From Candidatus Omnitrophota bacterium (GTDB lineage: Bacteria; Omnitrophota; Gorgyraeia; JABMRG01; JAFGKX01), in NCBI GenBank assembly GCA_043797125.1, contig JAZDPX010000006.1, positions 6,921 through 70,920 on the forward strand: a stretch of DNA of 64,000 bases, given 5' to 3'. Below are positions 1 through 42,250 of the stretch, piece after piece. The position numbers and the translations under genes were made by a program. The notes below the pieces were generated by a model. The model had not been told where the DNA came from. It searched no databases and was given only the letters and a program-made list of their open reading frames with translations. How positions within the stretch are numbered: the first letter of the stretch is position 1; each line of letters starts with the position of its first letter.

Positions 1-3000
1 GTCTCTGTTGTTGCGGTTGTTACACCCTCTATATCAAGCGTTTCTGTTATTACGGTCTTTTTCTTCTGTTTGCCGTCAAGCGTTGTTCCGTCGTCCCTGC
101 TGTAATACTCATAATATATTTTCTGGATTTCCCTTGTGCCGTCAGGGTTTAATGTAACCTGGGCTGTTTGTTCCAGCTTTTTATTCTGTCTCTCATCAGG
201 CAATCCGCTATCTGAAACGTATACGAGCACGCTGCCTATCGCGAAACCGAGGTTTTCGGAAACCGCGGCATCCTTGGTATCGCCATCGCCGTTGTAATCC
301 ATATTGTCAGCCACTTCATTCGCATTATCCAGGACGGCATTACCGTTTAAATCCTCAGTATTAACCGAAACATAGGCAACAACAGTGCCGTCTGTCTTAA
401 GCTCCTGTTTATGTGTCCATGCCAGATCTTTATCCTTCGTATAAGCCTTTCGCTCTCTTGAATAGCTCTGCTCCAATAAAGCGTTGTCTGCGCCTGTCTT
501 TTTATATTCGTTGGCGGAGTACAGGAGGCTGCCGTATTTGTTATAGCGTGTCGCGCTGGAGTTTGTTGTGGTACTTACAAGCTCGAAGCCCGGAATCGGA
601 TCTTGCTCGTTTGTTAATCCGAATACAAACTTTAAATTAAAAATATTCCCAGATGCAACATTTACTACTATTTGATCAAGAGCATCGTTCCAGTAGCTGC
701 TTGCTTGGTATGCAAAATTGGTACTGTTTCTTTTTGTCTCAAAGTTGCCTATTTTGGCTTCTGCCTCATTCTTACCAAAATAATAGACCTTCGTGCAAGT
801 CTTTTTATCCGTTACCCTGGTAGTCAACGCGCCGTTTTCATATGACGCGTATGCGTTCTCGGTTGTGGTCTCTTTTACCTCTCCTTCATCTGATATAGAT
901 ATGTCTACTGTCTCTACCACGCTGCCCTGCGCATTGTATATATTGTGCGTGGATTTATAAGATGTGCCGTCGTAATATTTGTTTTTGTCAGTTTCAGCCA
1001 AGTCATAGTTAGTCAAAAGATCATTATTGTTCCACATCCTTGTCTTTAATGTTGTAGCTAAAGTATTTGCTTGGTGTTGCATAGCCCCTACAACTTTTGC
1101 TAATCCAAGTTCACCCGCTGCTGTCATTGCCTCCCAATCCGGACCCGCGATGCCGTCTAAATTCTGGCCAAAATCATATACCTTATTTTTAGTAACAGAA
1201 TTCACCTTTTTGTACTTATCATCTACCAGTTGGTATATATTGTCTGTCCAGCTATCCGTAACCTTACCGTCCGCTGCAACTTTTGTTGTTATCTGGCGTT
1301 TGACCTGTTTTTCCTCGTCTCCTTTGATTTCGCCGTCGTTGTTTGCATCAACATATATGCTCTGAGTCCCGCTAAATGTTATGGTATCAATATAGCCATC
1401 CATATTTATCCCACTTGCTATTATCAGGGCTTTGTGGCCTTCAATTGCATCAATAATCACCGCTGAGGTATATCCGGGAAGGCCATCTTTAATAAAGTCG
1501 TAGGTAGTGGTTGCTGTCCAGTCGATGACCTTTGTGTGCTTATTATCTATTTCCTGATAGCCGTATTCGGTTATGGTCTCTGTCACCTGCGAATCATCCG
1601 TAACACTTATGGATATCTTTTTTACATAGTTTCTTTCTAACTCGCCGCGTATGCCGTTAATGCCGTCGTAATCATTGTACACGTAGCGAGTAAAATTATA
1701 GGTGGTTGTGTCAAAATAACTGTTATGATTGCCGACGAAATTCTCAAGGCTGTTATTATTATTTTTGTAATTATCTACCGTATTTATAAGGTCCTCTAAT
1801 CTTGTTATGGTTTTGCTGTTTACAACTATCTTTTCTTCGTAATCAGCTGTGTTGTTATAATTTAAATCCATTGAAAGATTATAGTTGTTCACTGTTGTTG
1901 TGGTCTGGACGCTTTTATCTGTCCCGTCTATATCCTGGTATTCATACTTATTTATTGTCTGCTTGACCGCTCCGGTTTCCGATATATCAAAGTCTGTTTT
2001 GGTCGCTATAAGTTTTTTTTCGTCGCCGGATACGTTGTCATCGCCGTTTACATTAAATCCGTACTCATACTGCGTGCACTTATAGCTTACTCTTTTATTA
2101 TAGGCGTCCAGATTGATTCCGATATTAGATATCAGTATGAGTTCATTAACTGTTATTTCGCCGTCAGCTGTAATGGAATTTTCATAGTTTGTTAAGTCCT
2201 GCACTAGCTTTCCCCTGCCGCTGCTGGACACGTAATCATCGAGGTCATAATAAGTAGTTCTGGTTGCTGTTGATTTGTTTTTATCCGAACCGTTTATTTT
2301 CTCGTACTGATAACTGCATCTGGTTTGCGTAACCTCGCCATACTCCGTTGTTTTGAGCATAATCTTTTCTTTAATCAGGTTGCCCTCATATATGTACTGG
2401 GTGCAGTTATAGGTAGCTGCGTCGAGCTTAATGCCCAGGACACCTGCAAGCGTATCATTAATAACAAGGGCATTTCCCGTAGATGCGATACCGCCTTCAT
2501 TGTAAATATAATTATTATACAGCTTGCCTGCAACTATGCTGGATTTAGTATTAGCGTTTTTGACAATAAATTCTTTTGTTGTGGTGCTGCTAATGAGCTG
2601 CTTGTATACGCCGTTTATCTGTTGGTCCGTGTAGTTGTTTACGGTTTCCTTAAGATCCGCGAATTCATTTACATCAATGCTTCTCCTTTGCTTAATCCTG
2701 TAGGTACCTTCGTCATATATGCTCTGGTAAACCTTTAGGGTGGTCTCTGTGCCATTGAGGTTAAAAACCGCTGCCGGTTTATTCAGCGCGTTCAGGTAAA
2801 CATAGGTTTCGGTCATCATGGAATCAGCGGCGCTTTGGATAAAAGATTCCATGCCTAATCCGTTGTTTAATTCATCCACAATGTCTTTGGAGCTAATGCC
2901 TGCGGCTGCTATGTAGTTATTTTTTAAAGTAACGGCCAGCGTCTGTCTTTCTCTGTCATCGCCAAACTTTTTATATGTGTAACTAGATACGGTTTCCGTA

Positions 3001-6000
3001 TATTCGCCGTCTTTTGATAAGTTAACGTCAATTTTTGCGGTTAGGTTGTCGCCGGTGTATATGCTCTGCGACGCGTTTATGCTGATATCTTCGGGCTGGC
3101 TGCCAAGACCTAAGCTGGTTTTGCTTACCGTATCAAGATGTACGATAGTTGATGATAAGTTAAAAGGGTTAACTATCTGGTTAACAACAAAATCCGCGAG
3201 ATCATCAACCATATCCTCGGCCGTAACGCTGCTTGATGTAGGCTTATATTCGCTCTTAACGCTGTAATAGAAGACCTGCCTTTTTCTGCCGTTTATTTCT
3301 TTTTGGGTATATCTGTCAATGGTTTGGGTAAAATCGCCTTCTTCCGTAATCCATAAGGAAACTTTTTTATCGAGGTCATCGCCATCATATATGTTCTGGG
3401 TTATTCTGCACGTTGTGGATTCCGAAAAAAGGCTGCTATCAGCGCTGAAATTAAAATCCATTATTTCCGGTTGAGGATCTCTTCCGGCATTAACAGCCTC
3501 TTTTGTGTCAGTTACCATATTCTCCGCGGTGGTTATTAAACTGTTTATCTTTCCGTTGGGGTTATTTGCGGCGGGGACATAACTGTATTTCTGAGTTAAA
3601 ACTGAATTTAAATAAGTCCTTCCTTCGCTATCATAAACATACCCTGTGGTAGTCTGCGTTATATCGCCATCGCTGTTGGCGTATACTGATATTTTCTCTG
3701 AGAGCTTCCCGTCAGAATAGTATTTGTTATGCGCGCAGTTTAAGTTAACAGATTCCGGCGTTGCCCACGTAAAACCATCGAGGTTGCTGTTTTCTGATAG
3801 TGCCCCGTTCGGCTTAAGCCTATTTTTTATTGCGCCCAGTATGCCGTAGCCGGAATCATAATCGTAGTTGCTTGTTTTTGTGGCTGTAACCACCTGCCTG
3901 CTTTGCGTATCATAAGCGTTTTTGGTTTCTCTATAGGTGACGCTGCCCGAGTCAGAGGCTTTTACATATACTGTCGTATCGAGAAGATCGCCTATATAAT
4001 CATTTCTTGTGAATGTTAAATCGCTGCTTTCGGGATCTTTGCCGCTGAAAAAGCTATAAATATCATTCCAGTTGATGGCATGCCAATCCCTGTTAGTGTT
4101 ATAGGCGAAATCTGAAATGGCGTCTATAACATTAGCTATAACATCATCGCAGTCATACTTGTCGGTCAGCGTGAAGGTAACTGTATTTTTATTCTCGCTG
4201 TTGTATTTGTAATCGGTAACTGATTTTGTAATGTTCCCCGTATCAGACGCCGTAATGGATACAAGGCTTGTCTTTCTGAATTTGTCATTTTCGCCGTTTG
4301 CAATACCGTCGCTGTCTGAATCATATTGCTCATAGGCATAACCATTGATAGTGGCTCTCTGGCTTTTAGGGCCCACTACAGTGCCTTCCGCTAAAGTTAA
4401 ATCCGCCAGGCTATAAGATTGGCCTTCATCAATAATAATGTCATCCGAATTGAGACATTGCTCTATATCTGTCTTAATTTGCTGTATGTCCGCTTCCGTT
4501 GCCGCGTCAAAGGTCTTTCTGACGGTAAGGCTATAAACAAGGTTATCGCCCTGCTCATCTGAATAATATTTTGTAGATAAATCCTCTGTTATGTCCCCGG
4601 AATCTTTTATTGTGATGTTTTTTGTCTCAAGGAGCCTTCTTTTGCTGTTGTAAAGCTTTTTCGTGCCCGTGTAATATTCCGAGGTTTTGTTATTTTCATT
4701 AATATCCTCGATGCTGGTAGCGCCGCTGTAATTTGACGTAGTCTTAAATTCCCTGATCTCTTTTTTATAAAATTTTTCATTGCCGTCCGCGTCGAAAAAG
4801 CGAACATACACATAGCCGTAATCAATCAAGGTTTTACGTAAAGAACCGCTGCTTGAGTAACTTTTGCTTTCGTAATGTTTCCTATCTCCCTGCTCGTTGT
4901 ATTCTGTGTAGGTATAATATTCGGAAGAGACCCCTGCGTCATCCGCGTAATTAATCCTGCGCGTTGTGTCCGTTGCACGTTTGCCGTTCTCATGGTATGT
5001 GTATTCAGCGGTTGTCTCCGAGATAATATTATTTCCCTCTATGGAGCATTTGCTGGAAGTATAGCTTTGAAGCTTGCCGTTTTCATCGTACGTCTTTGTG
5101 CTCACATATATATAGCCGTCATCGCTCACTGTCATGTTATCCGATACCAAGCTGTGTTGTGAGTTTCTTACTTCTAATATTTCTATTGTTTTGTCTTTAC
5201 CATCAACTTTGTAACCGCTACTTTTGGCTCTTATTCTCTCGTTGCCGCTTCCCAAATCCTCGGTTTCCAGCACGTTAAAAAGCACGTTTTCGTAATCAGC
5301 CTCTACTCCCTCGAGTTTGCCGTTTTTCCAGATTAATGCGCCATTTTCATTAAGAAATAAAGGTCTTCCGCTGGCATCCCACTCTGTTACCATGTATTTA
5401 GACTGTTTAAAACTAATCAAAACGCCCGATGCAAATACTAAGTTCTTTCTGATTGTGACAAAAAGGACTTTGTCGCTGCTATCTAGATACGCATCAACTA
5501 TGTAATCAACAGAACCTGCGCTGTTGCGACTTACATAGCTGACGACATTGTACGCTTCATCGCAAGCGCCGGAGACATACACCGTGCCCTCCTGGACAAG
5601 AACGGCGTTTCCGTCCTGAATCGCGTACTCTTTGACATACTGGCTTATGATTTCTTGCGTATCCAGGTCGTACTCGATATCTGAAACCTCTAACGTGCCT
5701 ACATGTTCTCCCTCGTCATTGTATATGTATTCTATCCATTCCGCGGGAAGGCCGGTATCTTCGTCGTAAGCCAAATATTCTATTTCATGCTCAAGCTCAT
5801 CCTGCTCGGTCCATGTTTCTGTGGAGTTGCCGTATTCGCGCACCGTATACTGATGATCCAATATATTCTTCACCGCATTGGTTTCATCGGAACCATAAAA
5901 ACGTGAATCTGCCGTGTAGGTAACCCAGTGATGCTCTTCTGTAATATGGCCGTAGATGGAAACCATCGCGCCGCGGTCAACCTCAAATATGCTCATTTTT

Positions 6001-6709
6001 GCTGTGGGGTCATAATGCGTGATGTTATACAGATCAAAATTCGTCTGGCCGTTATGCGTAATTTTTGTATATTCTTTAAGCAGGGCATTTTCGTCATAAA
6101 TCATGTTGAATGTATCGCTATAATAAACTTCGCCGTTTATCTCAATCTTTTCGTTAAGCACTGCTCTTACCAGGCCCGCCTGAAAAAATACCTTCTTACC
6201 GTCAGGGTGCAATACGTAAGAGCTACCCGCCTTATATGCCATCTCTCTTGCGAATGTTACGATCTGTAAAAGTTGCTGATATACAACATGCGAATCATAC
6301 CTGGCATATGAAAGATTATATGCCTGCTGCTGTGTCTCTGGCGTCACGTTGTAAAAAACCTGATTGTATTTTCTCCTGTGCTCAATATTGCGCAGATTAT
6401 TAAGCCTCTCCTGCTCCTGACGCATATGCTTTATAGCTTCAATGGCAGTATAGCCCTGCTTTGTGATATATTTTTCTTCCTGCTGATTCAATGAGCTTAA
6501 ATCAGTGCCTTCATCAACCAGTGATTTTACCTTATCCAGAATTGTCTGTTTATCGACAGCGGGTTTCTGCAGAAATGAAAAGTCTGCGCCGCTGGCAAGC
6601 TGCTGCCAGGAGAAACTAATAATTAAAGTCCACGCTATCGTCTTATATATAAGACTAGCTTTATTAAAACAACTTTTCTCCTGTAACAATTTGTCTTCTT
6701 TGGGATTCA
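1..6709 (-). CDS. Giant secreted repeat-rich surface protein, partial (start ATG at 6709-6707; 3' end beyond window; >2230 aa in window)
   Basis: Manual translation of the reverse complement from ATG 6709 gives an uninterrupted reading frame to position 1. The N-terminus MNPKEDKLLQEKSCFNKASLIYKTIAWTLIISFSWQQLASGA looks like a signal peptide. Downstream is Thr/Ser/Asn/Tyr/Asp-rich repetitive sequence with recurring Y-x-Y-(D/N/H)-E-x-G-(K/R) motifs (e.g. KTYDENGKLQSY, YTYHENGKRATD, YVYDSEGRTYLN) reminiscent of YD-type beta repeats. The ORF track shows no ORF of 115 aa or more on either strand across 6.7 kb, consistent with a single real frame that runs off the window edge. Confidence 0.55.
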
Positions 6710-6995
6710 TTTTAGCCACCGCTATTTGACGTTCCTTTTATTACTACTATATATAACACAATATTATTGAAAATATTCCACTTTTTTACGTGTAATCAAA
6801 AAGTTTTTTAAAGGCTTAAATAATAGGGTAAAAAAAATGATTTGCTGCATCTAGCCCTTTCCATTACACTATAAATATACAGTATGAATATGAAAAAGTC
6901 AAGGCCCCGGACCCACTTTTTTTCACATTTTTTTAAGACAAAAGTATACCCAAAGCGTATGAGGCTTTTGCCATGTTCGGCACTGATTGTTCACC

Positions 6996-7160
6996 CTTAC
7001 GCTTGGGGACGGTTCACCCCAATGAGGCTAAAGTGTCCCCTATGCTCTTTTGACGTTTAGAAGTAAGGTTGAAAAAATTTCTAAGATTAGAATTAACGAA
7101 GCGCACTTCAGCGTTGGGGACACTTTATAATCTCAGGGGTGAACCGTCCCCAAGCGTAGC
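6996..7160. repeat. Nested inverted-repeat (long hairpin) element in the GH94 / giant-gene intergenic region
   Basis: Outer 24-bp IR: cttacgcttggggacggttcacccc (6996-7020) vs ggggtgaaccgtccccaagcgtag (7137-7160). Inner IR: aaagtgtcccc (7033-7043) vs ggggacacttt (7122-7132). A third gtcccct copy lies at 7168. A flanking 25-bp motif at 6962-6986 is the inverse complement of cagtgccgaacatg.caaa, which also ends the 12997-13262 and 27515-27712 elements. Confidence 0.6.
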
Positions 7161-7224
7161 AGTAAAACGTCCCCTAAGTTGGCTAAGTTGGGCGGAGGAG
7201 GTGAGGCTACTTTTTGTATGAGAA

Positions 7225-7400
7225 GGCCTGTGGTAATCCGAGCAGGCACCGTACCATATTAGGTACGGGGTATAGCTTGCGAGGCCGAAGCGGGCATGGT
7301 TCGCCTTTGCTTCCATACAGCCGAGAGCGAAGGCCGAGGTCAGAGCAAAAAAATCCTCGCTGGGGATTTTTTTGCGTCCCTGCGAGGATTGCCACAGGCC
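7225..7400. repeat. MITE-like / structured palindromic element, family A copy 1
   Basis: Terminal inverted repeats (ga)gaaggcctgtggtaatcc ... ggattgccacaggccttctc. An internal 14-bp-stem hairpin gcaaaaaaatcc-tcgctg-gggatttttttgc. A second copy at 42059-42206 is about 85% identical. The small ORFs at 7125-7529 in the track fall inside it and are rejected. Confidence 0.65.
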
Positions 7401-7454
7401 TTCTCAATAATATTAATGGATGATACGGTTGCTCATAACCGTATCACAACCGTA

Positions 7455-9986
7455 TCATTTAACCGGCTTTCCCATGGTAACACGCACATAGTGGGTCTTT
7501 TCATCCTTGAAAACAGGCAGGATATTTGACTTTATCTTCTTGCCGTCTATGAGTATCTCTGCTATACCTGAAGATACATGGCTGCGATTTATAACATCTA
7601 TTATGTATCTTGACCCTCTAAAAGTCCTGTAGACCTTGAACAAACTCCATCTTTTTGGTATGCACGGATCTATAAATAAACCCTGTACTGTAGGTTTTAT
7701 TCCCAGTATCTGCTCAGTTAAAATTTTATTTAACCAGAACGGGCTTCTTCCATACCAGGAATAACGCGCTTGTCCGAATTTGACTGCATCCTGACCATCG
7801 ATATAGCATGATGCGACAAATGGCTCCATTTCATAAATATCTGCGCTATGGGCTCTATGCACCGGATTTAATCTTGAATATATATCCCAGGCATTATGCG
7901 AGCGGCCCAGTAAAACTTCAGCCCAAACTGCCCATGATGCAAATTCAATATTTGTGCCGCCATTCTCTTCTACTCCGGGGGCCAGGCAAGTCAATGTGCC
8001 TATGCTTGAGTCGCAAAGACTATATGAAGGTGTAAGCGCAATAGGCCCGTGATTTTTATAAAGATGTTTGGCAGTAACATCCATCAATTTTTTGGCATCC
8101 TCGCCTTCAACCACGCCGCTTATAACAGCCCATGTTTGAGGATTTAAAAATATCGCGCTGTCATTTTTTCCCGGTTTTCCTATGATAGCGCCTTTTGAAG
8201 TTATCGCCGCAGGATACCATTCGTAGCCCTTAAATAGTTTATTAATATTATCTTTTAACTGTTTTGCCTGCTTGGCATATTCGCCGGCTTCTTTGTCATC
8301 TTTTCCCATCTTGCATATTTTTGAAAATTCATTCAATGTGTAATAGAGAAACTCGCCCAGCCACACGGAAGAGCCTTTTGAATCGCTGCCGATTTTATCG
8401 AGCTTACAGTTGCAGTCTCCCTGCATAATCGCGGGAAGGCCCTTTTTTGGAATTGTAGCCAATGTCCGCTCAAGCGCCTTTATGCAATGTTCCAACACAG
8501 TGTCTGCCGGCGCATCTAGGTACGCTGCCTTTTCCCTTAGTATGGATATATCAGCGGTTTCTTTTATATACTCGCTTATCGCGAAAATAAGCCATAGGGG
8601 TTCGTCTGAAAAAGCGCTGGCTTTAGAATTTCCAGTTAACGGGTCCCAATATGTCAGGACATTGCCGTCCGCATATTGATGCTTTACGCATTCCAATATG
8701 TTCTTTTTGCAGATTTCAGCATTTATAGCAAGGAATACGAGGCTGTTTAACAGAAAATCCTTAAACCTGACTAACCCTTCCGGCCGGTAATAACAGCCCC
8801 TGGCAGTTAATACCGATGAGATCGCCTGATACCTGAACCAGTTATTATTAAGAATATTAGCGCCTTCATCCGGGGTTTTAATATTCATGGATTTTTTAAG
8901 ATAATTTCCCCAGCGGCTGCCCATATTCGAGAACTCGCCTTCTACTTCTTTTACGTTTTTGTATTTTTTAATAAGCGTTTGCGCGGTTTTTAGATCCGGC
9001 GCAGAACCAATAACGAAAATAAGCTCATACTCCTGGCCTGCTTCAAAATCCAGGTCAACATGCAAACATGCCGCAGGGTCAACATACCTGCCTTCCTCTT
9101 TAAAGCACATCCCTTTTTCAACGGAGCGCGGAGAAGACTTTTTCCCATAAACGCCCAAAAACGCCTTTTTATCCGTGGTAAAACTGGAGACTGCTTTACT
9201 TACTGAGTGGAATTTTACCTCGCCATTCGCGGAATAGGCGTAAACTGCCGATAAATCATGGTCAAACGAAGTTTTCAGGAAAGCCTTTTCATTGTTATCC
9301 TGCAAGGCCGGGAAATACCACTCAAGATAACTGAATATGCTTAGGCTTCTTGGTATATCCAGTATGTTTCTGATTCGCAGCTGCCATATCTCGACAGGCT
9401 CCTGCGATGACGCAAAACATACGATGCTGTTTATTATGCCGGCATATCTGTTTGTTATGTTGGTATATCCGACACCATATCTGACTTCATAAAAATCGGG
9501 CTTTTTGCGCACCGGGTTCCATGCAGCTGACCAGATCTGTTGCGTTTTATTATCCCTTATATAAAAGAATTTGCCGTCTGAATCATTATTTAGATCGCCG
9601 CTCCAGCCGGTTACCTTGTCCGAGACGCCGTTTTTAAAACTAAAACCTCCGCCTGTCTGGGTTACAATAAAACCATAATTGTCATTTGTTATTATATTAG
9701 CCCACGGATTGGGGGATTCAGGCGCTGTAATAACATATTCTGAGCCGTCGTAAAGGAAAAATCCGTACCTGGTCCTAAATACCTCTTTTACTTTGTTTAG
9801 TGGTAAAAGCAAAGAGGCCATGGGTTCTTTCTTGACCTTTTTTGCTTTGGGCTTTGCGCTTTGGGCTTTGGGCCTTGAGCTGCGGGCCTTGCGCTTTGGG
9901 CTTTTTTTCTTTTTACTTTTTATTTTAACCTTCATTCTTTTTACTTTTGCCTTTTTACTTTTTACTTTTCTCTTTCTCTTCTTCAT
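7455..9986 (-). CDS. GH94-family glycoside phosphorylase (cellobiose/cellodextrin/chitobiose phosphorylase-like) with a lysine-rich N-terminal tail
   Basis: 843 aa. N-terminal catalytic-core signature RYGFFLYDGSEYVITAPESPNPWANIITNDNYGFIVTQTGGGFSF...FYIRD matches the GH94 (GT36) pattern. First 55 aa are K/R/P/A-rich (KKRKRKVKSKKAKVKRMKVK...PKAKKVKKE) and are encoded by a 7-bp tandem repeat. An alternative start at M56 (MASLLL) is possible. Confidence 0.7.
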   Translation of the reverse strand: MKKRKRKVKSKKAKVKRMKVKIKSKKKKSPKRKARSSRPKAQSAKPKAKKVKKEPMASLLLPLNKVKEVFRTRYGFFLYDGSEYVITAPESPNPWANIITNDNYGFIVTQTGGGFSFKNGVSDKVTGWSGDLNNDSDGKFFYIRDNKTQQIWSAAWNPVRKKPDFYEVRYGVGYTNITNRYAGIINSIVCFASSQEPVEIWQLRIRNILDIPRSLSIFSYLEWYFPALQDNNEKAFLKTSFDHDLSAVYAYSANGEVKFHSVSKAVSSFTTDKKAFLGVYGKKSSPRSVEKGMCFKEEGRYVDPAACLHVDLDFEAGQEYELIFVIGSAPDLKTAQTLIKKYKNVKEVEGEFSNMGSRWGNYLKKSMNIKTPDEGANILNNNWFRYQAISSVLTARGCYYRPEGLVRFKDFLLNSLVFLAINAEICKKNILECVKHQYADGNVLTYWDPLTGNSKASAFSDEPLWLIFAISEYIKETADISILREKAAYLDAPADTVLEHCIKALERTLATIPKKGLPAIMQGDCNCKLDKIGSDSKGSSVWLGEFLYYTLNEFSKICKMGKDDKEAGEYAKQAKQLKDNINKLFKGYEWYPAAITSKGAIIGKPGKNDSAIFLNPQTWAVISGVVEGEDAKKLMDVTAKHLYKNHGPIALTPSYSLCDSSIGTLTCLAPGVEENGGTNIEFASWAVWAEVLLGRSHNAWDIYSRLNPVHRAHSADIYEMEPFVASCYIDGQDAVKFGQARYSWYGRSPFWLNKILTEQILGIKPTVQGLFIDPCIPKRWSLFKVYRTFRGSRYIIDVINRSHVSSGIAEILIDGKKIKSNILPVFKDEKTHYVRVTMGKPVK
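9841..9903. repeat. 7-bp-unit tandem repeat (GCTTTGG-like, ~8 units) encoding the K/P/A-rich tail of the GH94 gene
   Basis: gctttgg gctttgc gctttgg gctttgg gccttga gctgcgg gccttgc gctttgg read directly. Same GCTNTGG unit family as 10481-10535, 20918-20952 and 24800-24830. Confidence 0.7.
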
Positions 9987-10001: not shown

Positions 10002-12524
10002 TTAAACTATTACATTTACCAAGCGTTTAGGCACGATAATAACCTTTTTAGGCTCTGCTTCGCCTATCCACTTTTTCACGACTTCATCTTTTAGCACTTT
10101 TTCTTTAAGCATTTCTTCAGTCGCATCTGCCGGCACAACTACTTTAGAACGCAGTTTGCCGTTTATCTGAACAGGTATAGTAAGCTCTTCTTCCTGTATC
10201 AGGCCTTTATCGAATGCAGGCCATTTTTGTCTAAATATACTTTCTTTATTGCCTAAAATCTGCCATAATTCTTCACTTATGTGCGGAGTAAAGGGAGCTA
10301 ATAATATAACTGCTGTTTGCGCTGCATCCCTGATAACATCAGGCGAAGCTTTTGTCTCGAGCGCAACATAAGAATCATTAATAAGTTCCATGATTGCGCT
10401 TATTGCGGTATTAAATTTAAATCCGCCCTCGATATCATCCGTAACTTTTTTTATGGTCTGGTGAATCTTCCGCGTTAAAGGGCTGTGGGCTTTGGGCTGT
10501 GGGCTTTGGGCTGTGGGCTTTGGGCTGTGGGCTTTAACCGATTCCACCAACCGCCAAACTCTGCCTAAGAATCTATACGATCCCTCAACAGCCCTGTCAT
10601 TCCATTCCGCGTCTCTTTCCGGCGGGCCTATAAATAATGTGTACAGCCTCACTGTATCAACGCCGTAGTTTTTTATCAATTCATCAGGGCTAACTACATT
10701 GCCTTTTGATTTGGACATCTTGGCGCCGTTTTTTATTATCATCCCTTGAGTAAACAGCCTTGCAAACGGCTCTTGGAAACTGACATACCCTAAATCAAAA
10801 AGCACCTTTGTAATAAAACGCGAATATAATAGGTGCAGTATCGCGTGCTCTACGCCTCCGATATATTGATCCACAGGCAGCCATTTATTCACCAGCTGCG
10901 AATCAAACGCCTTTTTATCGTCATTCGGGGATAGATAACGCAGGTAATACCAGCTTGAATCCACGAAAGTATCCATTGTATCAATTTCGCGTCTTGCCTT
11001 TTGTTTGCATTTGGGGCAGCTGGTTTGCACAAACTTCTCTGAATCTGCCAAGGGCGATTCACCAACGCCTTTAAATTTGACATCTTCAGGCAAAACAACA
11101 GGTAAATCCTTTTCAGGCACAGCTACTATGCCGCATTTTTCGCAATATATAATAGGAATAGGCGCGCCCCAGTAGCGCTGCCTTGATATAAGCCAGTCTC
11201 TTAATTTATAGTGCACAGCGCGCCTGCCAATTTTAATTTTTTCCATCCAGTCAGCTATCTTTACCATGGCCACGCGATTATCGAGGCCGTTAAACTGCGC
11301 TGAGTTTACCTGCACGCCGTCGCCTTCGTAAGCCGCTTCTAAGTGGTGACCTGGTGACTTTGTGACCTGGTGACCCTGAATAACTATTTCGATCGGCAGG
11401 CCATATTTTTTCGCAAACTCAAAATCTCGGCTGTCGTGAGCCGGCACAGCCATGACAGCGCCTGTGCCGTATTCAACTAATACATAATTAGCTATCCATA
11501 AAGGTATTTTTTTATTGTTTACAGGGTTTATTGCATGCCTGTTTATGAAGATACCTTCTTTTTCAAATTCCGCGCAAATGCGGTCTTCCTTGCTTTGCTG
11601 CCTTGCCTTTTTTATAAATTCATAAATTTTATTCTTATCCGGCGAGGCCTTAATCAGTTCTTCTATAAGGGGATGTTCCGGCGCAAGCACCATATAAGTC
11701 GCGCCGAAAATAGTGTCCACTCTTGTGGTATAGCAGGTTAATACAATATCGGAATCAGCCACCGGAAAATTTATCTGGACGCCGCTGGATTTTCCTATCC
11801 AGTTAGTCTGCATTGTTTTAACGCGCTGGGGCCAATCCATAAGTTTCTCTATATCATCTAAAAGCCTTTGCGCGTAATCTGTAATCTTAAAAAACCACTG
11901 CTCTAAATCTTTTTCTTCCACCTTTGTGTCGCAGCGCTCACAGCAAGCCCCGACAACCTGCTCGTTTGCCAAAACTGTCTTGCACGAAGGGCACCAGTTT
12001 ACAGCAGCCTTTTTCTTATACGCGAGGCCCTTCTCGTATAATTTTAAAAATATCCACTGCGTCCATTTATAATAATCGGGCCTGCACGCGGCGACTTCCC
12101 TTGCCCAGTCATATCCCACGCCCCAGCTTTTAAGCTGCCTTTTCATCATATTGATATTATTTTCCGTTGACACCTTGGGATGCAGCCCGCCTTTTATAGC
12201 TGCGTTTTCCGCGGGAAGCCCGAACGCATCCCAACCTATCGGAGAAAGCACGTTTAACCCGCGCATGATTTTATATCTGGTAAGGGCGTCGCCTAATATG
12301 TAGTTTCTGCCATGGCCGACATGTAGAGCGCCCGAAGGATACGGAAACATTACAAGGCAGTAATATTTATTAACTGCTTTAGAGGTATCTACTGAAAATA
12401 ATCCGATGTCTTCCCAGTGTTTCTGCCATTTACTATCAATTTTATCGAATGGATATTGCCTTGTTTCTGTCACGAAAATTTTCTCCGATTGACAAACATT
12501 ATGGTGAGTGTTATAATCTCTCAC
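10002..12524 (-). CDS. leuS: Leucyl-tRNA synthetase
   Basis: 840 aa. HIGH motif (ALHVGHGRNY), KMSKS motif (KMSKSKGN), and the CP1 editing and anticodon-binding regions typical of bacterial LeuS. Carries two in-frame microsatellite insertions (see the repeat features). Confidence 0.93.
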   Translation of the reverse strand: MRDYNTHHNVCQSEKIFVTETRQYPFDKIDSKWQKHWEDIGLFSVDTSKAVNKYYCLVMFPYPSGALHVGHGRNYILGDALTRYKIMRGLNVLSPIGWDAFGLPAENAAIKGGLHPKVSTENNINMMKRQLKSWGVGYDWAREVAACRPDYYKWTQWIFLKLYEKGLAYKKKAAVNWCPSCKTVLANEQVVGACCERCDTKVEEKDLEQWFFKITDYAQRLLDDIEKLMDWPQRVKTMQTNWIGKSSGVQINFPVADSDIVLTCYTTRVDTIFGATYMVLAPEHPLIEELIKASPDKNKIYEFIKKARQQSKEDRICAEFEKEGIFINRHAINPVNNKKIPLWIANYVLVEYGTGAVMAVPAHDSRDFEFAKKYGLPIEIVIQGHQVTKSPGHHLEAAYEGDGVQVNSAQFNGLDNRVAMVKIADWMEKIKIGRRAVHYKLRDWLISRQRYWGAPIPIIYCEKCGIVAVPEKDLPVVLPEDVKFKGVGESPLADSEKFVQTSCPKCKQKARREIDTMDTFVDSSWYYLRYLSPNDDKKAFDSQLVNKWLPVDQYIGGVEHAILHLLYSRFITKVLFDLGYVSFQEPFARLFTQGMIIKNGAKMSKSKGNVVSPDELIKNYGVDTVRLYTLFIGPPERDAEWNDRAVEGSYRFLGRVWRLVESVKAHSPKPTAQSPQPKAHSPLTRKIHQTIKKVTDDIEGGFKFNTAISAIMELINDSYVALETKASPDVIRDAAQTAVILLAPFTPHISEELWQILGNKESIFRQKWPAFDKGLIQEEELTIPVQINGKLRSKVVVPADATEEMLKEKVLKDEVVKKWIGEAEPKKVIIVPKRLVNVIV
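10481..10535. repeat. 14-bp-period (7+7) tandem repeat inside leuS, encoding KAHSPKPTAQSPQPKAHSP
   Basis: ggctgtg ggctttg x4 read directly. The reverse complement translates in frame as KAHSPKPTAQSPQPKAHSP within LeuS. Confidence 0.75.
11342..11376. repeat. 8-bp-unit tandem repeat (GTGACNTG x4) inside leuS, encoding QGHQVTKSPGHH
   Basis: gtgacctg gtgacttt gtgacctg gtgaccct. Same unit family as 34692-34730 in aroE. Confidence 0.7.
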
Positions 12525-12996: not shown

Positions 12997-13262
12997 CCTT
13001 TGCGTGCGTTGCCGGAATCTTGCTCCGCCGCAGGTGAGGTCTTTGCGATGCGAGGCACATTAGAAATTTTTTGCCAAATGTCTTTTTAGGACTTATGGCG
13101 AGGAGCGGCTAAGATTTTTTATTCTAGGGTAAGCGACAAGCCATTAAGTCCAAAAAGACGGCAAAAAATTTCAGTGCCGAACATGCAAAGACCGAACCAT
13201 CGGCAAGCGAAGGCAACCACACAAAGGCTAAGGTTCCAGCACCGAACATTGCAAAAACCGAA
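12997..13262. repeat. MITE-like long-hairpin element, family B copy 1
   Basis: Terminal IRs cctttgcgtgcgttgccgg ... ccacacaaagg. Central ~110-bp imperfect palindrome (aaattttttgccaaatgtctttttaggacttatggcg ... gccattaagtccaaaaagacggcaaaaaatttc). Tail motif cagtgccgaacatgcaaagaccgaacc is duplicated. A homologous copy lies at 27515-27712. Confidence 0.6.
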
Positions 13263-19394: not shown

Positions 19395-20370
19395 TAATCC
19401 TTATGCTGACATCGAGCAAAAATACATCCGGCGTTGGTGTATAATGCCGGCGTAACCTAATCCAGTCCTTTGTTGTTGTTATTATTGCGTCTGAGTTTGA
19501 ATCTTTGGCTCTTGCCTTAATTATTTCTACATCGCGCGCAGTATATTTATGGTGATCGGGATATTCAATTTTATCTGTTACCCGCGCATTTAAACTAAAA
19601 AGCATTTTAAAGAAAGAATCGTTATCGCCGACAGATGCGACAGCGCACAATCTTTTGCCTGATATATGGCTTAAATCAAATCTTTTATCCTCAAGCGGGG
19701 CAATTATTGAAACTGCCTTGTACTGCGCCTGGAAAACCTCCGCTTTGGGCGCTACTTTAGCGATGACATCTTTTGCGTACTGAATATTTTCCTTATCAGC
19801 CAGGTTAATCTTGGTAATCAGGATTATATCTGCCCTTGCAAGCGCGGATAGAGGCTCTCTTAATATCCCGGCGGGTATTAATCTTTCGTTGCCAAACGGG
19901 TTATTCGCATTTACTGTCACTATGTCCAGGTCTCTTTTTAATCGCCAGTGCTGAAATCCGTCGTCGAGAATTAATACGTCTGCGCCATGTCTGCCTTCTG
20001 CTTCCTTGGCGTTCGTTACGCGGTTTTTACCCGATAAAACCAGGGCATTGGCAAATTCTTTTAACATTCTATCTTCATCATCTCCGTAGCCCCTTATTAA
20101 AATTGCCGGCCTTTTGCCTTTTGCGCGCAGAAAATTATTCAAAAATATCGAAAGGCTGCTCTTGCCTGTGCCTCCCCATGTGATATTTCCCACGCTTATC
20201 ACTTTTGCCCTGGGCCTTGCGGATTTTAACAGGCCCAATCGAAAAAAAAGCTTAATAAACTCTATTGAGCCAAGGTAGACAAAAGAAAAAATTAATAAAA
20301 GCGGAGCCAGCAACACGTAAAAGTGCGAATAATTTGCTTTTGTCAGTAAGGAATAAATGAATTTTCTCAT
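19345..20370 (-). CDS. lpxK: Tetraacyldisaccharide 4'-kinase
   Basis: 341 aa. P-loop VGNITWGGTGKSS matches the LpxK GNxxVGGTGKT signature. N-terminal membrane anchor. Sits in the waaA-lpxK operon context. Confidence 0.8.
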   Translation of the reverse strand: MRKFIYSLLTKANYSHFYVLLAPLLLIFSFVYLGSIEFIKLFFRLGLLKSARPRAKVISVGNITWGGTGKSSLSIFLNNFLRAKGKRPAILIRGYGDDEDRMLKEFANALVLSGKNRVTNAKEAEGRHGADVLILDDGFQHWRLKRDLDIVTVNANNPFGNERLIPAGILREPLSALARADIILITKINLADKENIQYAKDVIAKVAPKAEVFQAQYKAVSIIAPLEDKRFDLSHISGKRLCAVASVGDNDSFFKMLFSLNARVTDKIEYPDHHKYTARDVEIIKARAKDSNSDAIITTTKDWIRLRRHYTPTPDVFLLDVSIRIIDEEKFFNRISSLLAF

Positions 20371-20377
20371 GGTTTTT

Positions 20378-20500
20378 GCGCAGATTAGAAGTCACAGATG
20401 ATCGCAGATTAGAAGAAACAGATGATCGCAGATTTTAACCAAAGTAAACATCTGTGATCATCTTGCATCCTTTAATCTGTGATCATCTGCGTAAAAAATT
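20378..20500. repeat. REP-like palindromic intergenic element, family C copy 1 (between waaA and lpxK)
   Basis: Left half cagattagaag.acagatgatcgcagat x2; right half atctgtgatcatct x2 (inverse). Family members also at 31845-31936, 40112-40212 and 41885-41975. Confidence 0.65.
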
Positions 20501-20550: not shown

Positions 20551-21831
20551 CTAAGAATGTAAAATAGTTTTTATAATATTAAGTGTTTTATTCGCGGCGC
20601 CCTGGTTTGCATAAACTGTCATTTTGGCCAAATGGCCGGTCTGTTTCGCTAATGCCTCGTTTTCATAAAGCATTTCTATGGCGCCCAGTAAGGAAGGCTG
20701 GTCTTTTACAAGGAAGGCCCCCTCTTTATCTAGGAGGAGGTTTGCTATATCTTCAAAATTCGACGTATACGGCCCAAAAAGAATACATTTGCCTAAAGAT
20801 GCCGGCTCTATCATATTTTGTCCGCCGTGTTTTATCAGGCTTCCTCCTACAAATACGAGCCATGCCAGACTGTAGAAAAGTTTGAGCTGGCCTATTGAGT
20901 CTAGTAAAAACACGGGACTGCTGTGGGCTGTGGGCTGGGGGCTGTGGGCTAATTCAGAAATTTTTACCGGAGTAAATCCATAGGATTTCACCAGTTTTAC
21001 CAGACTATCAGTACGCTCGATATGGCGGGGTGCGATTAAAAGAGATAGATCGTTATGCCTTTTTCCAAGTTCTTTATACGATTCAAGCAGAATCTGTTCT
21101 TCGCCCGGATGGGTGCTGCCCGCGACAATGAGTTTTTTCCCGCCGATGTTTAAGGCCTCGCGCATCTTTTGATTCTGGGCGTGGTCAACGCGGGAATCCA
21201 CGCTGTCAAATTTAATATTTCCGAAAATCTTGATTCTATCCGCGTCAGCGCCCAAAGAGGCTAATCTTCGCGCGTCTTCTTGCGTCCTGACCAAAAATAC
21301 GGTTACGCGGTTTAATATGCTTTTTAAAATAGGCTTTACGAACATATACCGTTTGTATGAATTCTGCGAAATTCTGCCGTTTGATAAAATTACCGGTATG
21401 TTACTTTTATGCAGTATCCTGATTAAATTCGGCCATATTTCGGTTTCAATTATTATAAAAATATGCGGATTTATCTGCCTTATAGCCCGTCTTACGCAGA
21501 ATGAGAAATCAAGCGGCATATAAATAACGGTTGTGTCAGCGGGCATTATTGTTTTGGCGAGATTATTGCCTGTCTCTGTTACTGTGGATATTACTATATT
21601 AAAATTTAAGTCTTTCTTAACGCTGTCCACAAGCGTTTTCGCGAGCATAACCTCGCCGACACTTACCGCGTGTACCCATATATTGCGCCCGGCCTCGAGT
21701 TTCTGTTTTACCTCATCCGGATACACCCCAAAGCGCATAGGTATCCCTTGCCTCTTTCGCCTCTTAAACGCAAAGACTGTGAGATAGAAGAGAATGAATA
21801 TTGAATATAATATTTGATAGATTATGTACAT
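20551..21831 (-). CDS. waaA: 3-deoxy-D-manno-octulosonic acid (Kdo) transferase
   Basis: 426 aa. N-terminal TM, then IWVHAVSVGEVMLAKTLVD (KdtA W-x-H-A-x-S-x-G-E signature). Carries the in-frame microsatellite insertion AHSPQPTAHSS. Confidence 0.85.
   Translation of the reverse strand: MYIIYQILYSIFILFYLTVFAFKRRKRQGIPMRFGVYPDEVKQKLEAGRNIWVHAVSVGEVMLAKTLVDSVKKDLNFNIVISTVTETGNNLAKTIMPADTTVIYMPLDFSFCVRRAIRQINPHIFIIIETEIWPNLIRILHKSNIPVILSNGRISQNSYKRYMFVKPILKSILNRVTVFLVRTQEDARRLASLGADADRIKIFGNIKFDSVDSRVDHAQNQKMREALNIGGKKLIVAGSTHPGEEQILLESYKELGKRHNDLSLLIAPRHIERTDSLVKLVKSYGFTPVKISELAHSPQPTAHSSPVFLLDSIGQLKLFYSLAWLVFVGGSLIKHGGQNMIEPASLGKCILFGPYTSNFEDIANLLLDKEGAFLVKDQPSLLGAIEMLYENEALAKQTGHLAKMTVYANQGAANKTLNIIKTILHS
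20918..20952. repeat. 7-bp-unit tandem repeat (GCTGTGG x4) inside waaA
   Basis: gctgtgg gctgtgg gctgggg gctgtgg read directly. Encodes AHSPQPTAHS in frame. Confidence 0.7.
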
Positions 21832-24625: not shown

Positions 24626-25068
24626 ACAGCCAAGAGCTTGCCCTTTTCATTTTCTAAATTGTAATATTATTATAACACAAATATTAGGAATTTCAAGGGA
24701 AATCGGACGCTCGAGTAGAACGCTCGAGATTAGTTATGAGTATTGAGTAGTGCTTAACAGAGGTCACAAGTTAGTCGATAGTCAATGGTCGATGGTCTAT
24801 AGTCACCCGTAGGCTATGTGCTATGGGCTGTGGGCTCTCGGACAGGCCAAAACGGGGCGTCCCTAATCAGACATGCTGGCGATTCGTTGTGCGTCGTGCG
24901 TATTGCGTTGTGCGTATTAAAAACGTCAATCCCAATTCCTAATCTGGCAATTCTAACCAGGTTAGAGTACCGTCAAAGCACCATTAGAATATCATTGGAC
25001 AGGTTACCGATTGGCTGCGTAAACGGTACGTACTCGTACTCGCTCGCGCACACTTATGATATTTATAT

Positions 25069-27514: not shown

Positions 27515-27712
27515 GCCTTTGTGTGCGTTGCCGGAGCGACTGTGCTGAGTGAGGCTTTCGCAATGCGAGGTGCATTAGAAATTTTTTTCCAAATGTCTTT
27601 TTAGAACTTACGACGAGGGAACGGCTAAGTTTAGATGTTTGGGAAAGTGACCGAGTCGTAAGTTCAAAAAGACGGAAAAAAATTTCAGCACCGAGCATGC
27701 GAAAGCCGAACC
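27515..27712. repeat. MITE-like long-hairpin element, family B copy 2 (abuts the xerC stop codon)
   Basis: cctttgtgtgcgttgccgg ... gcattagaaatttttttccaaatgtctttttagaacttacgacgagg ... tcgtaagttcaaaaagacggaaaaaaatttcagcaccgagcatgcgaaagccgaaccc. Homologous to 12997-13262. ORF 27477-27698(-) lies within it and is rejected. Confidence 0.6.
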
Positions 27713-30746: not shown

Positions 30747-31856
30747 CTATACCCTCACATACAATTTTCCTGGCAGCTGCTTCACTAATCCCGTCATTTC
30801 AAGATTTAATAAACTTAAACACGCCTTCTGTGAATTTAGGCTAAGCCCTTCTATCAAACTGTCTATTGTCACAGGCGTATCGGAAAGGGCTTTATAAATT
30901 ACTTTGTCTTCTTCCGAAATATTAGAAAGAAGATGCTCCTTTTCCAGTTCTTTCTTATCTTTGGCAGAAAAATCTCTCAATAATTCCGGGAACAGCTCTT
31001 CGATGATATCGGATGCGTCCAAAGTCAGCTTTGCCCCTTGTTTTATTAGGTTATTGCACCCTAAAGATGTGTCTGAATCAGCATTTGCGCAAACCGCAAA
31101 AACATCTTTTCCCTGCTTTAACGCAAAATCAGCTGTTATTAAAGCGCCGCTTTTTTCCGGGGCCTCTACCACAAGCACGCCTTTTGATAAGCCGCTTATT
31201 ATCCTGTTTCTGCGCGGAAAATTTTCCTTTAAAGGCGGGGTGTCCATGGGAAATTCAGATATCAAAGCCCCGTTTAATTGAATCTCGTCCGACAGCTTCC
31301 TGTTTTCCGGAGGATATATATTATTTAACCCGCTTCCCAAGACTGCTATTGTTTTCGCGCCTTGCGCAAGCGCCTGTTTATGGGCAACAGTATCTATGCC
31401 CCTGGCCAAGCCCGAACAAATGGTTATGCCTAATTTTGCCAACACGGCGCAGATGCGCTTGGTCATCCTTATGCCATATTGCGTGCAGCTGCGCGAACCT
31501 ACAACAGCCAATGAATTCTTTGTTATGTTTTCAATATTTCCCTTTACATATAAAACTATCGGCGGGCTGCTGATGTTTTTCAAGGTATCCGGATACTCTT
31601 TATCAAAAATAGTGATTATCTTCACATGCTCTTTTTTAATAAGGTCCAATTCTTTCTGCAGGTTAAAGGCTGCCTTTGCCCTTAAGATATCATTCTCAAG
31701 AGGCCTGGCGATACCGTTATCGGAATCCGATAATTTTTTATAACCAAAGTCCGGTAAGCTGTTAAGGAGTATAAGGTCGTTTGCGGAAATTTTCACCGCT
31801 AATCCTTTTCTAAGATAACGCCAAAAATCTTGCTGACTTTTTGCACAGATAATCAC
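30747..31856 (-). CDS. dprA: DNA processing protein DprA (Smf)
   Basis: 369 aa. Rossmann-like core GLARGIDTVAHKQALAQGAKTIAVLGSGLNNIYPPEN. Conserved dprA-topA synteny. Confidence 0.85.
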   Translation of the reverse strand: MIICAKSQQDFWRYLRKGLAVKISANDLILLNSLPDFGYKKLSDSDNGIARPLENDILRAKAAFNLQKELDLIKKEHVKIITIFDKEYPDTLKNISSPPIVLYVKGNIENITKNSLAVVGSRSCTQYGIRMTKRICAVLAKLGITICSGLARGIDTVAHKQALAQGAKTIAVLGSGLNNIYPPENRKLSDEIQLNGALISEFPMDTPPLKENFPRRNRIISGLSKGVLVVEAPEKSGALITADFALKQGKDVFAVCANADSDTSLGCNNLIKQGAKLTLDASDIIEELFPELLRDFSAKDKKELEKEHLLSNISEEDKVIYKALSDTPVTIDSLIEGLSLNSQKACLSLLNLEMTGLVKQLPGKLYVRV

Positions 31857-31936
31857 AGATTAGAAGATACAGATGATCGCAGATTTTATATCTGTGATCA
31901 TCTTGTATCCTTTCATCTGTGCTAATCTGTGTATAC
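31845..31936. repeat. REP-like palindromic element, family C copy 2 (between dprA and aroK)
   Basis: cacagattagaagatacagatgatcgcagattttatatctgtgatcatcttgtatcctttcatctgtgctaatctgtg. Confidence 0.65.
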
Positions 31937-40111: not shown

Positions 40112-40212
40112 TGCGCAGATGATCGCAGATTATAAGACGCGGATGATCGCAGATAAATTCTTACAACATCTGTGATCATCTTGTATCTTTTAATCTGTGC
40201 TAATCTGTGTAA
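40112..40212. repeat. REP-like palindromic element, family C copy 3 (between ilvD and ilvB)
   Basis: gcgcagatgatcgcagattataagacgcggatgatcgcagataaattcttacaacatctgtgatcatcttgtatcttttaatctgtgctaatctgtg. Confidence 0.65.
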
Positions 40213-40214
40213 AA

Positions 40215-41975: not shown

Positions 41976-42058
41976 TCTCTAATATAATACTTAGGGTTAG
42001 ATTATAGCACACGATTTTTTGATGTCAACTATTTTACGTAAAACCCCCGTATAGCAAA

Positions 42059-42206: not shown

Positions 42207-42250
42207 TTTGCTTTGCAGATCTCTCTTTTGTAAGAATGACAGCCGGGGCC

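Follow-up and report, generated by a model that had tools for sequence, protein, structure and literature searches.

A probable new structured RNA on a small mobile hairpin unit shared by a Candidatus Omnitrophota genome and distantly labeled bacteria

INTRODUCTION

Bacterial genomes harbor several described kinds of small repeats and mobile structured RNAs, and more than one of them resembles the element considered here, which occurs twice, as copies W1 and W2, in a 64,000-nucleotide (nt) stretch of a Candidatus Omnitrophota genome (GenBank assembly GCA_043797125.1, contig JAZDPX010000006.1, positions 6,921 to 70,920; hereafter called the window). Like the bacterial miniature inverted-repeat transposable elements (MITEs) Correia/NEMIS, RUP, ERIC, and Nezha, this element is small, noncoding, multicopy, and intergenic, with arms that give a long hairpin, and in one lineage, comprising Actinomycetota-labeled and saline-sediment genomes, it sits inside a true MITE. 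The known MITEs, however, are bound to a species or genus and conserved at their ends, whereas here the ends vary and a branched interior is conserved across phyla. The repetitive extragenic palindromes (REPs) and REPINs spread by RAYT transposases are likewise intergenic hairpin repeats with a strand-specific structure and no target-site duplication, and Y1_Tnp genes occur at the same hot spots in related Omnitrophota. Unlike them, the element has no GTAG-type motif and no adjacent RAYT gene, is present in far fewer copies, and is built around a three-way junction core.

Structured RNAs offer a second set of comparisons. The HEARO (omega) RNA of IscB, the IS605-orfB RNAs, and the bridge/seek RNAs of IS110/IS1111 share with the element a structured length of 100 to 250 nt, carriage on mobile DNA, presence in many phyla, and definition by covariation. 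They adjoin a nuclease or recombinase gene and carry programmable guides, whereas the element is not associated with any gene, lacks a guide-like variable loop, and matches nothing in Rfam. Hammerhead, twister, and hepatitis delta virus (HDV)-like ribozymes are also found embedded in repetitive or mobile DNA, the hammerhead in retrozymes and Sm-alpha. They resemble the element in their invariant loops and junction, covarying stems, hairpin-closed unit, repetitive and patchy distribution, and lack of gene association; the element nevertheless matches no ribozyme model, and its fully nested topology is unlike the HDV-like one. Finally, a three-way junction combined with a loop E-like loop recalls 5S rRNA (closing helix; two arms, one with a purine-rich, non-Watson-Crick internal loop of a protein-binding kind and AUGGU/GAGAG-like strings), but the Rfam 5S model gives no match, there is no homology between the sequences, and a plain hairpin makes up the second arm of the element. 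Neither the 5S/loop E likeness nor one to ssoA (CS-6 TAGCGT) survives a topology test or a model search.

We report here that W1 and W2 are paralogs within a family not represented in Rfam 15, whose elements of about 110 to 190 nt fold on one strand. The family has a conserved, strand-specific fold, loops under selection, and multicopy, mobile behavior, and it probably represents a functional RNA of a new kind that travels on a small mobile unit. On balance, we favor a new structured RNA module that is clamped by a hairpin and moves horizontally, with its functional core formed by the conserved loops.

RESULTS

Compensated differences between the two window copies

W1 (188 nt) and W2 (160 nt) both lie on the + strand and have no coding capacity. 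They are found where a preliminary description, made from the letters of the window, had placed them (7225 to 7400 and 42059 to 42206), the full elements being slightly longer than described (Table 1). The arm sequences quoted there are correct, and the proposed identity of about 85% comes close to the 89.9% that we measured over 158 aligned nt, with a 28-nt insertion of W1 set aside. Sixteen substitutions separate the copies over this alignment, 10 of which make up five pair swaps that keep the pairing (the outer stem, of 21 bp, holds three and the internal hairpin P6 holds two), as expected from the compensatory changes first described in the arms and the hairpin. One of the remaining substitutions breaks a pair in W1, and five fall at unpaired positions. 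When 16 substitutions were placed at random on the 158 sites, at least five doubly hit pairs were obtained in none of 20,000 trials. The + strand folds at −102.1 kcal/mol in W1 (z −10.6 versus shuffles) and at −87.4 kcal/mol in W2 (z −7.6), compared to −88.4 and −73.1 kcal/mol, respectively, for the − strand. Since the + strand is thus more stable by about 14 kcal/mol in both copies, the shared U·G wobbles do favor this strand, as had been proposed. No third copy was found in the window by pattern searches, by nhmmer, or by a covariance model run with its filters off.

A family spread over about eight phylum labels

Relatives were retrieved from metagenomes with an exact interior 20-mer and from GTDB, with one genome per GTDB species, by means of a gapped pattern, an exact match to 16 to 20 nt of the core being required in all cases. 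True relatives make up about 26 of the 42 matched metagenome loci, the others being chance matches inside GC-rich genes; in the GTDB species genomes, 42 of the 45 matched loci are true. Altogether, these exact-pattern scans of metagenomes and metagenome-assembled genomes (MAGs) yielded about 65 relatives of W1 and W2. Diverged copies were added by nhmmer, four of which narrow the conserved core to GCGGGCA(N)GG ... AGC(R)A.

The titles of the GTDB records name Patescibacteria (Saccharibacteria, Yanofskybacteria, and Liptonbacteria), Actinomycetota MAGs, Omnitrophota, Aminicenantes, Planctomycetia, Bdellovibrionales, Auribacterota, and one gammaproteobacterium, so that the labels cover about eight phyla in all. 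The composition of the stems tracks the host, being GC rich in Aminicenantes and AT rich in Actinomycetota-labeled bins, which argues against contamination. Copies per MAG, counted by exact match, range from 1 to at least 8 (8 in MAG-54, 5 to 7 in two FK_Sedi bins, and 3 to 4 in Bin_050).

Searches of reference collections gave no further members. At gathering thresholds, Rfam 15 recognized only tRNAs in the window and in 20 loci, and at an E value of ≤10 with permissive filters, nothing overlapped the element in window positions 6800 to 7500 or in 12 loci. This result spans every curated ribozyme class (hammerhead, twister, twister-sister, pistol, hatchet, and HDV-like among them) as well as the HEARO, IS605-orfB, 5S, 6S, and Y RNA models. 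Three patterns had no match in the IMG/VR viral contigs, plasmid and phage collections gave nothing credible by blastn at the sensitivity used, and full-text literature searches turned up no description of the motif. The exact 24-mer GAGAGCGAAGGCCGAGGTCAGAGC had no match in the GTDB species genomes, where the source MAG is not a representative, and this 24-mer spans variable P3/P4 bases.

A branched fold with invariant loops and changing helices

Folding predicts the same architecture for every member. From the outside inwards, a long closing stem (P1) is followed by a GA-rich internal loop (GA/GA in the window), by stem P2, and by a nearly perfect three-way junction. The first arm runs through P3, a small GA-containing loop, and P4 to an invariant asymmetric loop, in which GAAGCGGGCAUGG lies opposite AGCGA or AGCGAA, and then ends in hairpin P5. 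The first three pairs of P5 (U·G, U-A, and C-G, with the invariant U·G at the base) do not change within the family, albeit both search patterns fixed UUC on the 5' side, which could therefore not vary. The second arm is hairpin P6, of 8 to 12 bp, capped by the conserved 7-nt loop NCGCNGG; a conserved GA precedes it, and it usually abuts P2 without an unpaired base (junction ...GC followed directly by GU...).

About 30 unpaired nucleotides are invariant across the family. Helix sequences are free to change provided that pairing is kept, and the loop nucleotides are under strong purifying selection. This opposition between a conserved interior and fast-evolving arms is a pattern that was not visible from the two window copies alone. 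Extra hairpins occur as lineage-specific additions between P2 and P3 (W1), in the loop of P5 (L020), and in P6 (L044 and L045; loci outside the window carry L numbers), and tolerance of this kind is typical of structured RNAs.

Reading of the sequences by eye revealed no reading frame conserved through the core, the frame relative to the conserved blocks varying by lineage. Accordingly, a small protein starting at the conserved core ATG was rejected: lineages do not agree in the frame, and P5 changes in length by numbers that are not multiples of 3. A pseudoknot between the CGC of the hairpin loop and either core GCG found no support in covariation and was rejected as well, AGCAA variants being uncompensated and loop position 5 showing a bias toward Y at most.

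Covariation and strand specificity

Because MAFFT misregisters the variable helices, RNAalifold failed on plain MAFFT alignments, and it was replaced by counting registered on the invariant anchors (P4, P5, and P6). Among 52 distinct members registered in this way, positions 1 to 5 of P6 are 90 to 100% canonical, with five to seven pair types, and positions 3 to 6 of P5 are 77 to 92% canonical, with exceptions that are mostly tandem G·A. In 43 distinct registered sequences, the proportion of paired cells is 85.5%, versus 55.9% in shuffles, and the covariation score is 0.663, versus 0.148, values to be read with the caveats that the P4 register (0 or +1) was picked per sequence and that the sequences are mutually related. 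None of 500 shuffles reached 0.663, slid-partner controls gave covariation values of 0.09 to 0.17, and changes on both sides were observed in 18 of 21 pairs.

The + strand is the more stable one in all 52 members, by a mean of 13.3 kcal/mol, and forms 266 G·U pairs, versus 77 on the other strand; in the outer stems, 155 G·U pairs contrast with 10 A·C mismatches. It follows from these asymmetries in folding energy and in G·U versus A·C that the fold is adopted by one strand, as a single-stranded nucleic acid. The additional copies thus bear out the selection on secondary structure that had been suggested from two: the roughly 65 relatives keep P4, P5, P6, and the outer stems paired despite differing in sequence, about 30 unpaired nucleotides stay invariant among them, and the bias to one strand persists. 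A structure supported by covariation in independent lineages is what is expected of a structured noncoding RNA. A covariance model built from the registered composite alignment detects W1 and W2 (Table 1) but misaligns P4/P5, and it was used for detection only.

Table 1. Positions of the structural parts of W1 and W2 in the window
Feature	Position	Strand	Remarks
W1, whole element	7219-7406	+	Covariance model E 1.4e-7 on core 7282-7372
W1, P1 5' arm TGAGAAGGCCTGTGGTAATCC	7219-7239	+	Pairs with 7386-7406; one U·G wobble, T7234-G7391; inverted repeat I9
W1, P1 3' arm GGATTGCCACAGGCCTTCTCA	7386-7406	+	Partner of 7219-7239
W1, GA of symmetric GA/GA internal loop	7240-7241	+	Partner GA 7384-7385
W1, P2 5' strand GCAGG	7242-7246	+	Partner CCTGC 7379-7383
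W1-only 28-nt insertion with extra hairpin CCGTACC/GGTACGG	7247-7274	+	Not in W2, nowhere else in the window
W1, P3 5' strand GCTT, junction GCGA, P4 5' strand GGCC (7283-7286)	7275-7286	+	
W1, core loop, long strand GAAGCGGGCATGG	7287-7299	+	Identical in all retrieved members; diverged copies narrow the conserved part to GCGGGCANGG
W1, hairpin P5	7300-7325	+	UUC/GAG pairs invariant in retrieved family; rest of stem and loop variable; one C·C mismatch in W1
W1, core loop, short strand AGCGAA (7326-7331), P4 3' strand GGCC (7332-7335)	7326-7335	+	
W1, P3 3' strand AGGT (7337-7340), junction CAGA	7336-7344	+	GA ahead of P6 conserved
W1, hairpin P6, 12-bp stem GCAAAAAAATCC/GGATTTTTTTGC, conserved 7-nt loop TCGCTGG (7357-7363)	7345-7375	+	Two compensated pairs versus W2
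W2, whole element	42053-42212	+	Covariance model E 5.9e-8 on core 42088-42178
W2, P1 5' arm AGCAAAGGCCTGTGGTAATTC	42053-42073	+	Pairs with 42192-42212; inverted repeat I13
W2, P1 3' arm GAATTGCCACAGGCCTTTGCT	42192-42212	+	Partner of 42053-42073
W2, core loop, long strand GAAGCGGGCATGG	42093-42105	+	
W2, P4 GGCC	42089-42092 and 42138-42141	+	
W2, core loop, short strand AGCGAA	42132-42137	+	
W2, hairpin P6 GCGCAAAAATCC/GGATTTTTGCGC, loop ACGCTGG (42163-42169)	42151-42181	+	

Mobility of the module

In the Actinomycetota-labeled and saline-sediment lineage, the module lies centrally in a MITE of about 290 bp with terminal inverted repeats of about 25 bp, and target-site duplications of 9 bp flank three independent copies of this shell (L007, TGCTCTATT; L019, AGGCATATC; L076, AAAAATAGT). 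Outside the MITE-bearing lineage, it is a bare hairpin of 140 to 190 nt without target-site duplications, no direct repeat flanking W1, W2, or most non-Actinomycetota members. The name "MITE-like" given to the window copies in the preliminary description therefore fits their small, noncoding nature, their 21-bp terminal inverted repeats, and their occurrence in two copies, but not their flanks.

Two copies in one Bdellovibrionales MAG (L049 and L078) show how the parts evolve. Their inner unit of 120 nt is identical and sharply bounded, except that the P6 apex differs by five fully compensated pairs, and their outer 12-bp stems are unrelated in sequence, each being paired. The copies in the Patescibacteria MAG Bin_050 behave in the same way. 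Together with the orthologous sites of related Omnitrophota described below, these comparisons indicate that the interior is under purifying selection, that the clamp stem diverges near-neutrally yet stays paired, and that the element is gained and lost at intergenic hot spots.

Upstream of the element, two loci of Patescibacteria belonging to different classes, L047 (positions 1 to 116) and L057 (reverse strand), have about 60 nt of conserved sequence in common (CCGCATAAAAC...TTTGGAATAAGG). In L057, this sequence is found about 100 nt ahead of the element and downstream of an open reading frame (ORF) whose C terminus looks, by eye, like recA. The unit may extend further in these lineages, or a recent transfer may have taken place. 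In a Saccharibacteria MAG (L054, reverse strand, core at about 1898), the element is sense oriented in a spacer of about 200 nt between ORFs that resemble, by eye, the ATP synthase delta and alpha genes (atpH and atpA); if so, it lies within an essential operon.

Genomic context of the element

W1 is located between the 3' end of a GH94 phosphorylase gene (7455 to 9986, − strand) and the promoter of a giant ORF (3 to 6737, − strand), and W2 is located between the divergent promoters of ilvD-ilvB (− strand) and of a short + strand unit preceding a PMT_2 membrane-protein gene. From these positions, both copies are intergenic, and they lie on the strand opposite to almost all genes of the window. 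At 60 nt from W1, a long imperfect hairpin unrelated to it occupies positions 6998 to 7158 (49-nt arms, 84% complementary, with a 63-nt spacer). It had only spurious, subthreshold Rfam matches to plant microRNA precursors and holds a + strand promoter-like site (7050 to 7078) aimed at W1.

No recurrent neighbor protein family emerged from an all-versus-all BLASTP comparison of 633 flanking ORFs within 2.5 kb of about 66 copies, the largest neighbor "cluster" consisting of spurious ORFs that overlap the element itself. The neighbors are ordinary housekeeping genes, and the orientation relative to the downstream gene is roughly random (same in 32 cases and opposite in 29). A noncoding RNA associated with a retron or another reverse transcriptase was rejected on the same comparison, the neighbors in the window being the GH94 phosphorylase, the giant ORF, ilvD, and the PMT_2 protein. 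A REP/REPIN-RAYT system was also rejected, as no Y1 gene lies beside any copy and the arms are not conserved between copies of the same genome.

Related Omnitrophota allowed us to follow the two insertion sites. The locus formed by the leucyl-tRNA synthetase (LeuRS), GH94, and giant genes carries the element in only one of six relatives (GH94 73% identical), at the same site and in the same orientation. The interior of this orthologous copy is about 95% identical to that of W1, including a compensated 1-bp shortening of P6. Only about 9 of 19 positions agree in its P1 arm, the flanks can no longer be aligned, and the end of the contig falls within the element. Other related Omnitrophota carry different hairpin repeats at this site. 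At the ilvD locus, the element is absent from two relatives, one of which has a Y1 (HUH) transposase gene there. Y1_Tnp genes (PF01797, IS200/RAYT-type HUH) were seen in these hot spots at L089 (2594 to 3094) and at L095 (9318 to 9947), only in relatives without the element at that site; the L095 gene is directly upstream of ilvD, the position of W2 in the window.

DISCUSSION

The family described here combines three properties in an unusual way: a core identical over 16 to 20 nt (the length set by the search), helices that covary freely, and mobile repeat behavior without a protein gene. We favor, as stated above, a mobile RNA module. The element would act as an RNA, which read-through or a promoter in the vicinity would supply. 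The long P1 would clamp the 5' and 3' ends, either protecting the RNA or offering a processing stem of the RNase III type, and we propose that this clamp function is the reason why P1 evolves by compensation and is conserved in its pairing only. As the two conserved loops are predicted to lie at similar distances from the junction, they probably dock into a compact tertiary core. Such a docked core would be the functional site, serving as a platform for a conserved protein or ligand or as a catalytic center, and the module would spread as a small nonautonomous mobile unit, horizontally between phyla.

If this is correct, the family represents a new class of structured nucleic acid with a very broad reach among uncultured bacteria. 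An identical core amid covarying helices is the signature that previously led to new ribozymes and ribonucleoprotein scaffolds. The outer stem, which diverges near-neutrally while its pairing is kept, also provides a natural example of rapid compensatory evolution. Annotators gain a concrete model, so that such elements need not remain anonymous repeats in MAGs. What is new is the unusually deep and wide conservation; the MITE-like repeat and the orphan structured noncoding RNA are known kinds.

Several observations weigh against a mobile RNA module. Since retrieval relied on exact matches to 16 to 20 nt of the core, the invariance of this core is partly built in. Covariation does not support the docking of the two loops. 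The promoter scan found no convincing + strand promoter directly upstream of W2, both flanking promoters pointing away from it; W1 is antisense to the GH94 gene, and the sole + strand promoter-like site near it lies within the neighboring hairpin. The core is truncated or replaced in several copies of the Actinomycetota lineage (L023, L028, L029, L035, and L046), which implies that individual copies can decay like selfish repeats. Four to five other related Omnitrophota also lack the element at the orthologous sites, so that it is dispensable there. Finally, strand-specific folding that tolerates G·T would be compatible with a single-stranded DNA intermediate as well. The RNA role is a prediction from sequence and fold, within which protein binding, ligand binding, and catalysis would each be a candidate biochemical role.

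A sharper version of the RNA hypothesis is that the conserved core is a catalytic RNA of a new class, self-cleaving or otherwise, borne by repeated hairpin units, a proposal that we judge unlikely. The internal loop, the junction, and the hairpin loop would then form the active site of a self-cleaving, ligating, or circularizing ribozyme that moves between phyla, the genome-reduced Patescibacteria included, an assignment that seems to us equally doubtful. The invariant nucleotides are purine rich and concentrated in these three places amid freely covarying helices, an arrangement typical of small ribozymes. A ribozyme would also account for multiple copies without an associated gene and independent of the orientation of flanking genes, for a distribution across phyla that is broad but patchy, and for copies that are sense oriented inside operons, such as L054. 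However, no Rfam ribozyme model matched the window region or 12 relatives at an E value of ≤10, no cleavage site can be named, and the conserved loops fit protein or ligand binding equally well. The short strings GGCAUGGU, CCUCGCUGG, and GCGAA are HDV-ribozyme-like, but the likeness fails on topology. The HDV-like fold is a nested double pseudoknot, with the order P1-P2-P3-L3-P3'-P1'-P1.1-P4-J4/2-P2', onto which the nested helix order of the element cannot be threaded. When threading was attempted by hand, the helices supported by covariation proved strictly nested (P4 encloses P5, and P6 comes after); moreover, P6 has 8 to 12 bp rather than 3 bp, and the hairpin loop lacks the CC needed for P1.1. 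An HDV-like ribozyme was rejected on these grounds.

The strand specificity of the fold could, alternatively, be that of single-stranded DNA, the element being a hairpin-dependent mobile or replicative signal for an HUH/Y1 enzyme (of the IS200/IS605 or RAYT type) or for another machine acting on single-stranded DNA, with the conserved loops as the recognition or nicking site. We consider this improbable, albeit several features are in line with it. W2 folds as DNA at −48.7 kcal/mol (z −7.0), and strand-specific tolerance of G·T would also fit such a fold; the window copies have neither a target-site duplication nor an obvious promoter; Y1_Tnp genes occupy the same intergenic hot spots in two related Omnitrophota; and the 120-nt unit of L049 and L078 lies within locus-specific inverted flanks, as if it had been inserted into hairpins. 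On the other hand, no Y1, Rep, or other transposase family recurs beside the roughly 66 copies, and in both window copies the fold is on the strand that carries hardly any genes. In the Actinomycetota-labeled lineage, the unit moves by double-stranded transposition of the DDE type, with terminal inverted repeats and 9-bp duplications, for which the internal fold is not needed. To our knowledge, the ends of IS200/IS605 elements and REPs are simple, species-specific hairpins, and we know of none with a three-way junction and about 30 nucleotides invariant across phyla.

More conservatively, the element could be an ordinary, lineage-specific MITE, in which the arms bind a transposase, the interior is filler, and the paired changes arise at the DNA level without selection on a folded product, either because both ends track one transposase or through template switching at a quasi-palindrome, by which one arm is copied onto the other. 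Template switching can indeed produce double changes in both arms at once, and the 21-bp inverted-repeat arms, the presence of two copies in 64 kb, and the many other hairpin-repeat families of the window would suit this explanation, as would the related type labeled Actinomycetota, which is a genuine MITE, has target-site duplications, and includes copies in decay. Yet the interior is conserved across the labels of about eight phyla, whereas the arms differ completely between lineages and even within one genome (L049 versus L078; L043 versus L044 and L045). The internal helices P4, P5, and P6, none of which is a transposon end, covary, the asymmetry between G·U and A·C is unexpected for double-stranded protein-binding sites, and the window copies lack a target-site duplication. 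The sharing of the core across phyla largely refutes an ordinary MITE, which we therefore regard as very unlikely.

Hardly credible, in our view, is a cis-regulatory mRNA element (terminator, insulator, attenuator, or riboswitch) acting on the adjacent gene: some copies (L054, L080, L084, and L086) do lie 46 to 125 nt upstream of, or between, co-oriented housekeeping genes, and in some lineages the U-rich P2 strand after P6 resembles a terminator, but neighbor genes are functionally incoherent, orientation relative to them is as often opposite as random placement would give, the U-run is not conserved and is missing in GC-rich members, W1 adjoins a convergent gene at its 3' end, and W2 is upstream of both flanking promoters. 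An intrinsic terminator was considered separately and rejected, since the scan flags only a chance site, GCGGGCATGGTTCGC, inside the core and the U-rich strand is lost in GC-rich members.

OTHER FEATURES OF THE WINDOW

The surroundings of both copies contain further repeats. A promoter module of 43 nt (TTGAC/AA-17-TATATT) is present twice, with 81% identity, at 6868 to 6910 (− strand), where it drives the giant ORF, and at 42243 to 42285 (+ strand), where it drives the short + strand unit (42286 to 42378) that ends in a strong terminator (42348 to 42373). The module upstream of the giant gene is also present in four relatives (L089, L091, L093, and L094). The giant ORF itself encodes more than 2,245 amino acids, runs off the window, and has no Pfam match; the orthologous gene calls in two relatives (L091 and L092) have 4,581 to 7,437 residues.

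Directly after the stop codon of the GH94 gene, tandem TGATACGGTT repeats occupy positions 7420 to 7449. All six related Omnitrophota have kept them (immediately behind the GH94 stop codon in L088, L089, L091, L093, and L094), the rest of the spacer being unrelated, and the repeats may be a protein-binding site or a terminator. Intergenic repeats of the CACAGATGATCGCAGAT type are found in both orientations at 20369 to 20496, 31844 to 31936, 40114 to 40214, and 41880 to 41978, just upstream of several − strand genes, including the ilvD gene that adjoins W2; they may form a regulatory or REP-like family. Another intergenic repeat, of about 165 nt, occurs in two copies with 85 to 86% identity (13034 to 13198 and 27549 to 27712), and a similar sequence seems to fill the spacer between the GH94 and giant genes in one relative (L093, 3480 to 3600). 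Within coding regions, 14-nt tandem repeats of the GCTTTGGGCTGTGG type (9830 to 9902, 10475 to 10547, 20920 to 20950, and 24806 to 24850) encode low-complexity inserts rich in K, P, A, and Q, for example, in LeuRS and at the N terminus of the GH94 protein.

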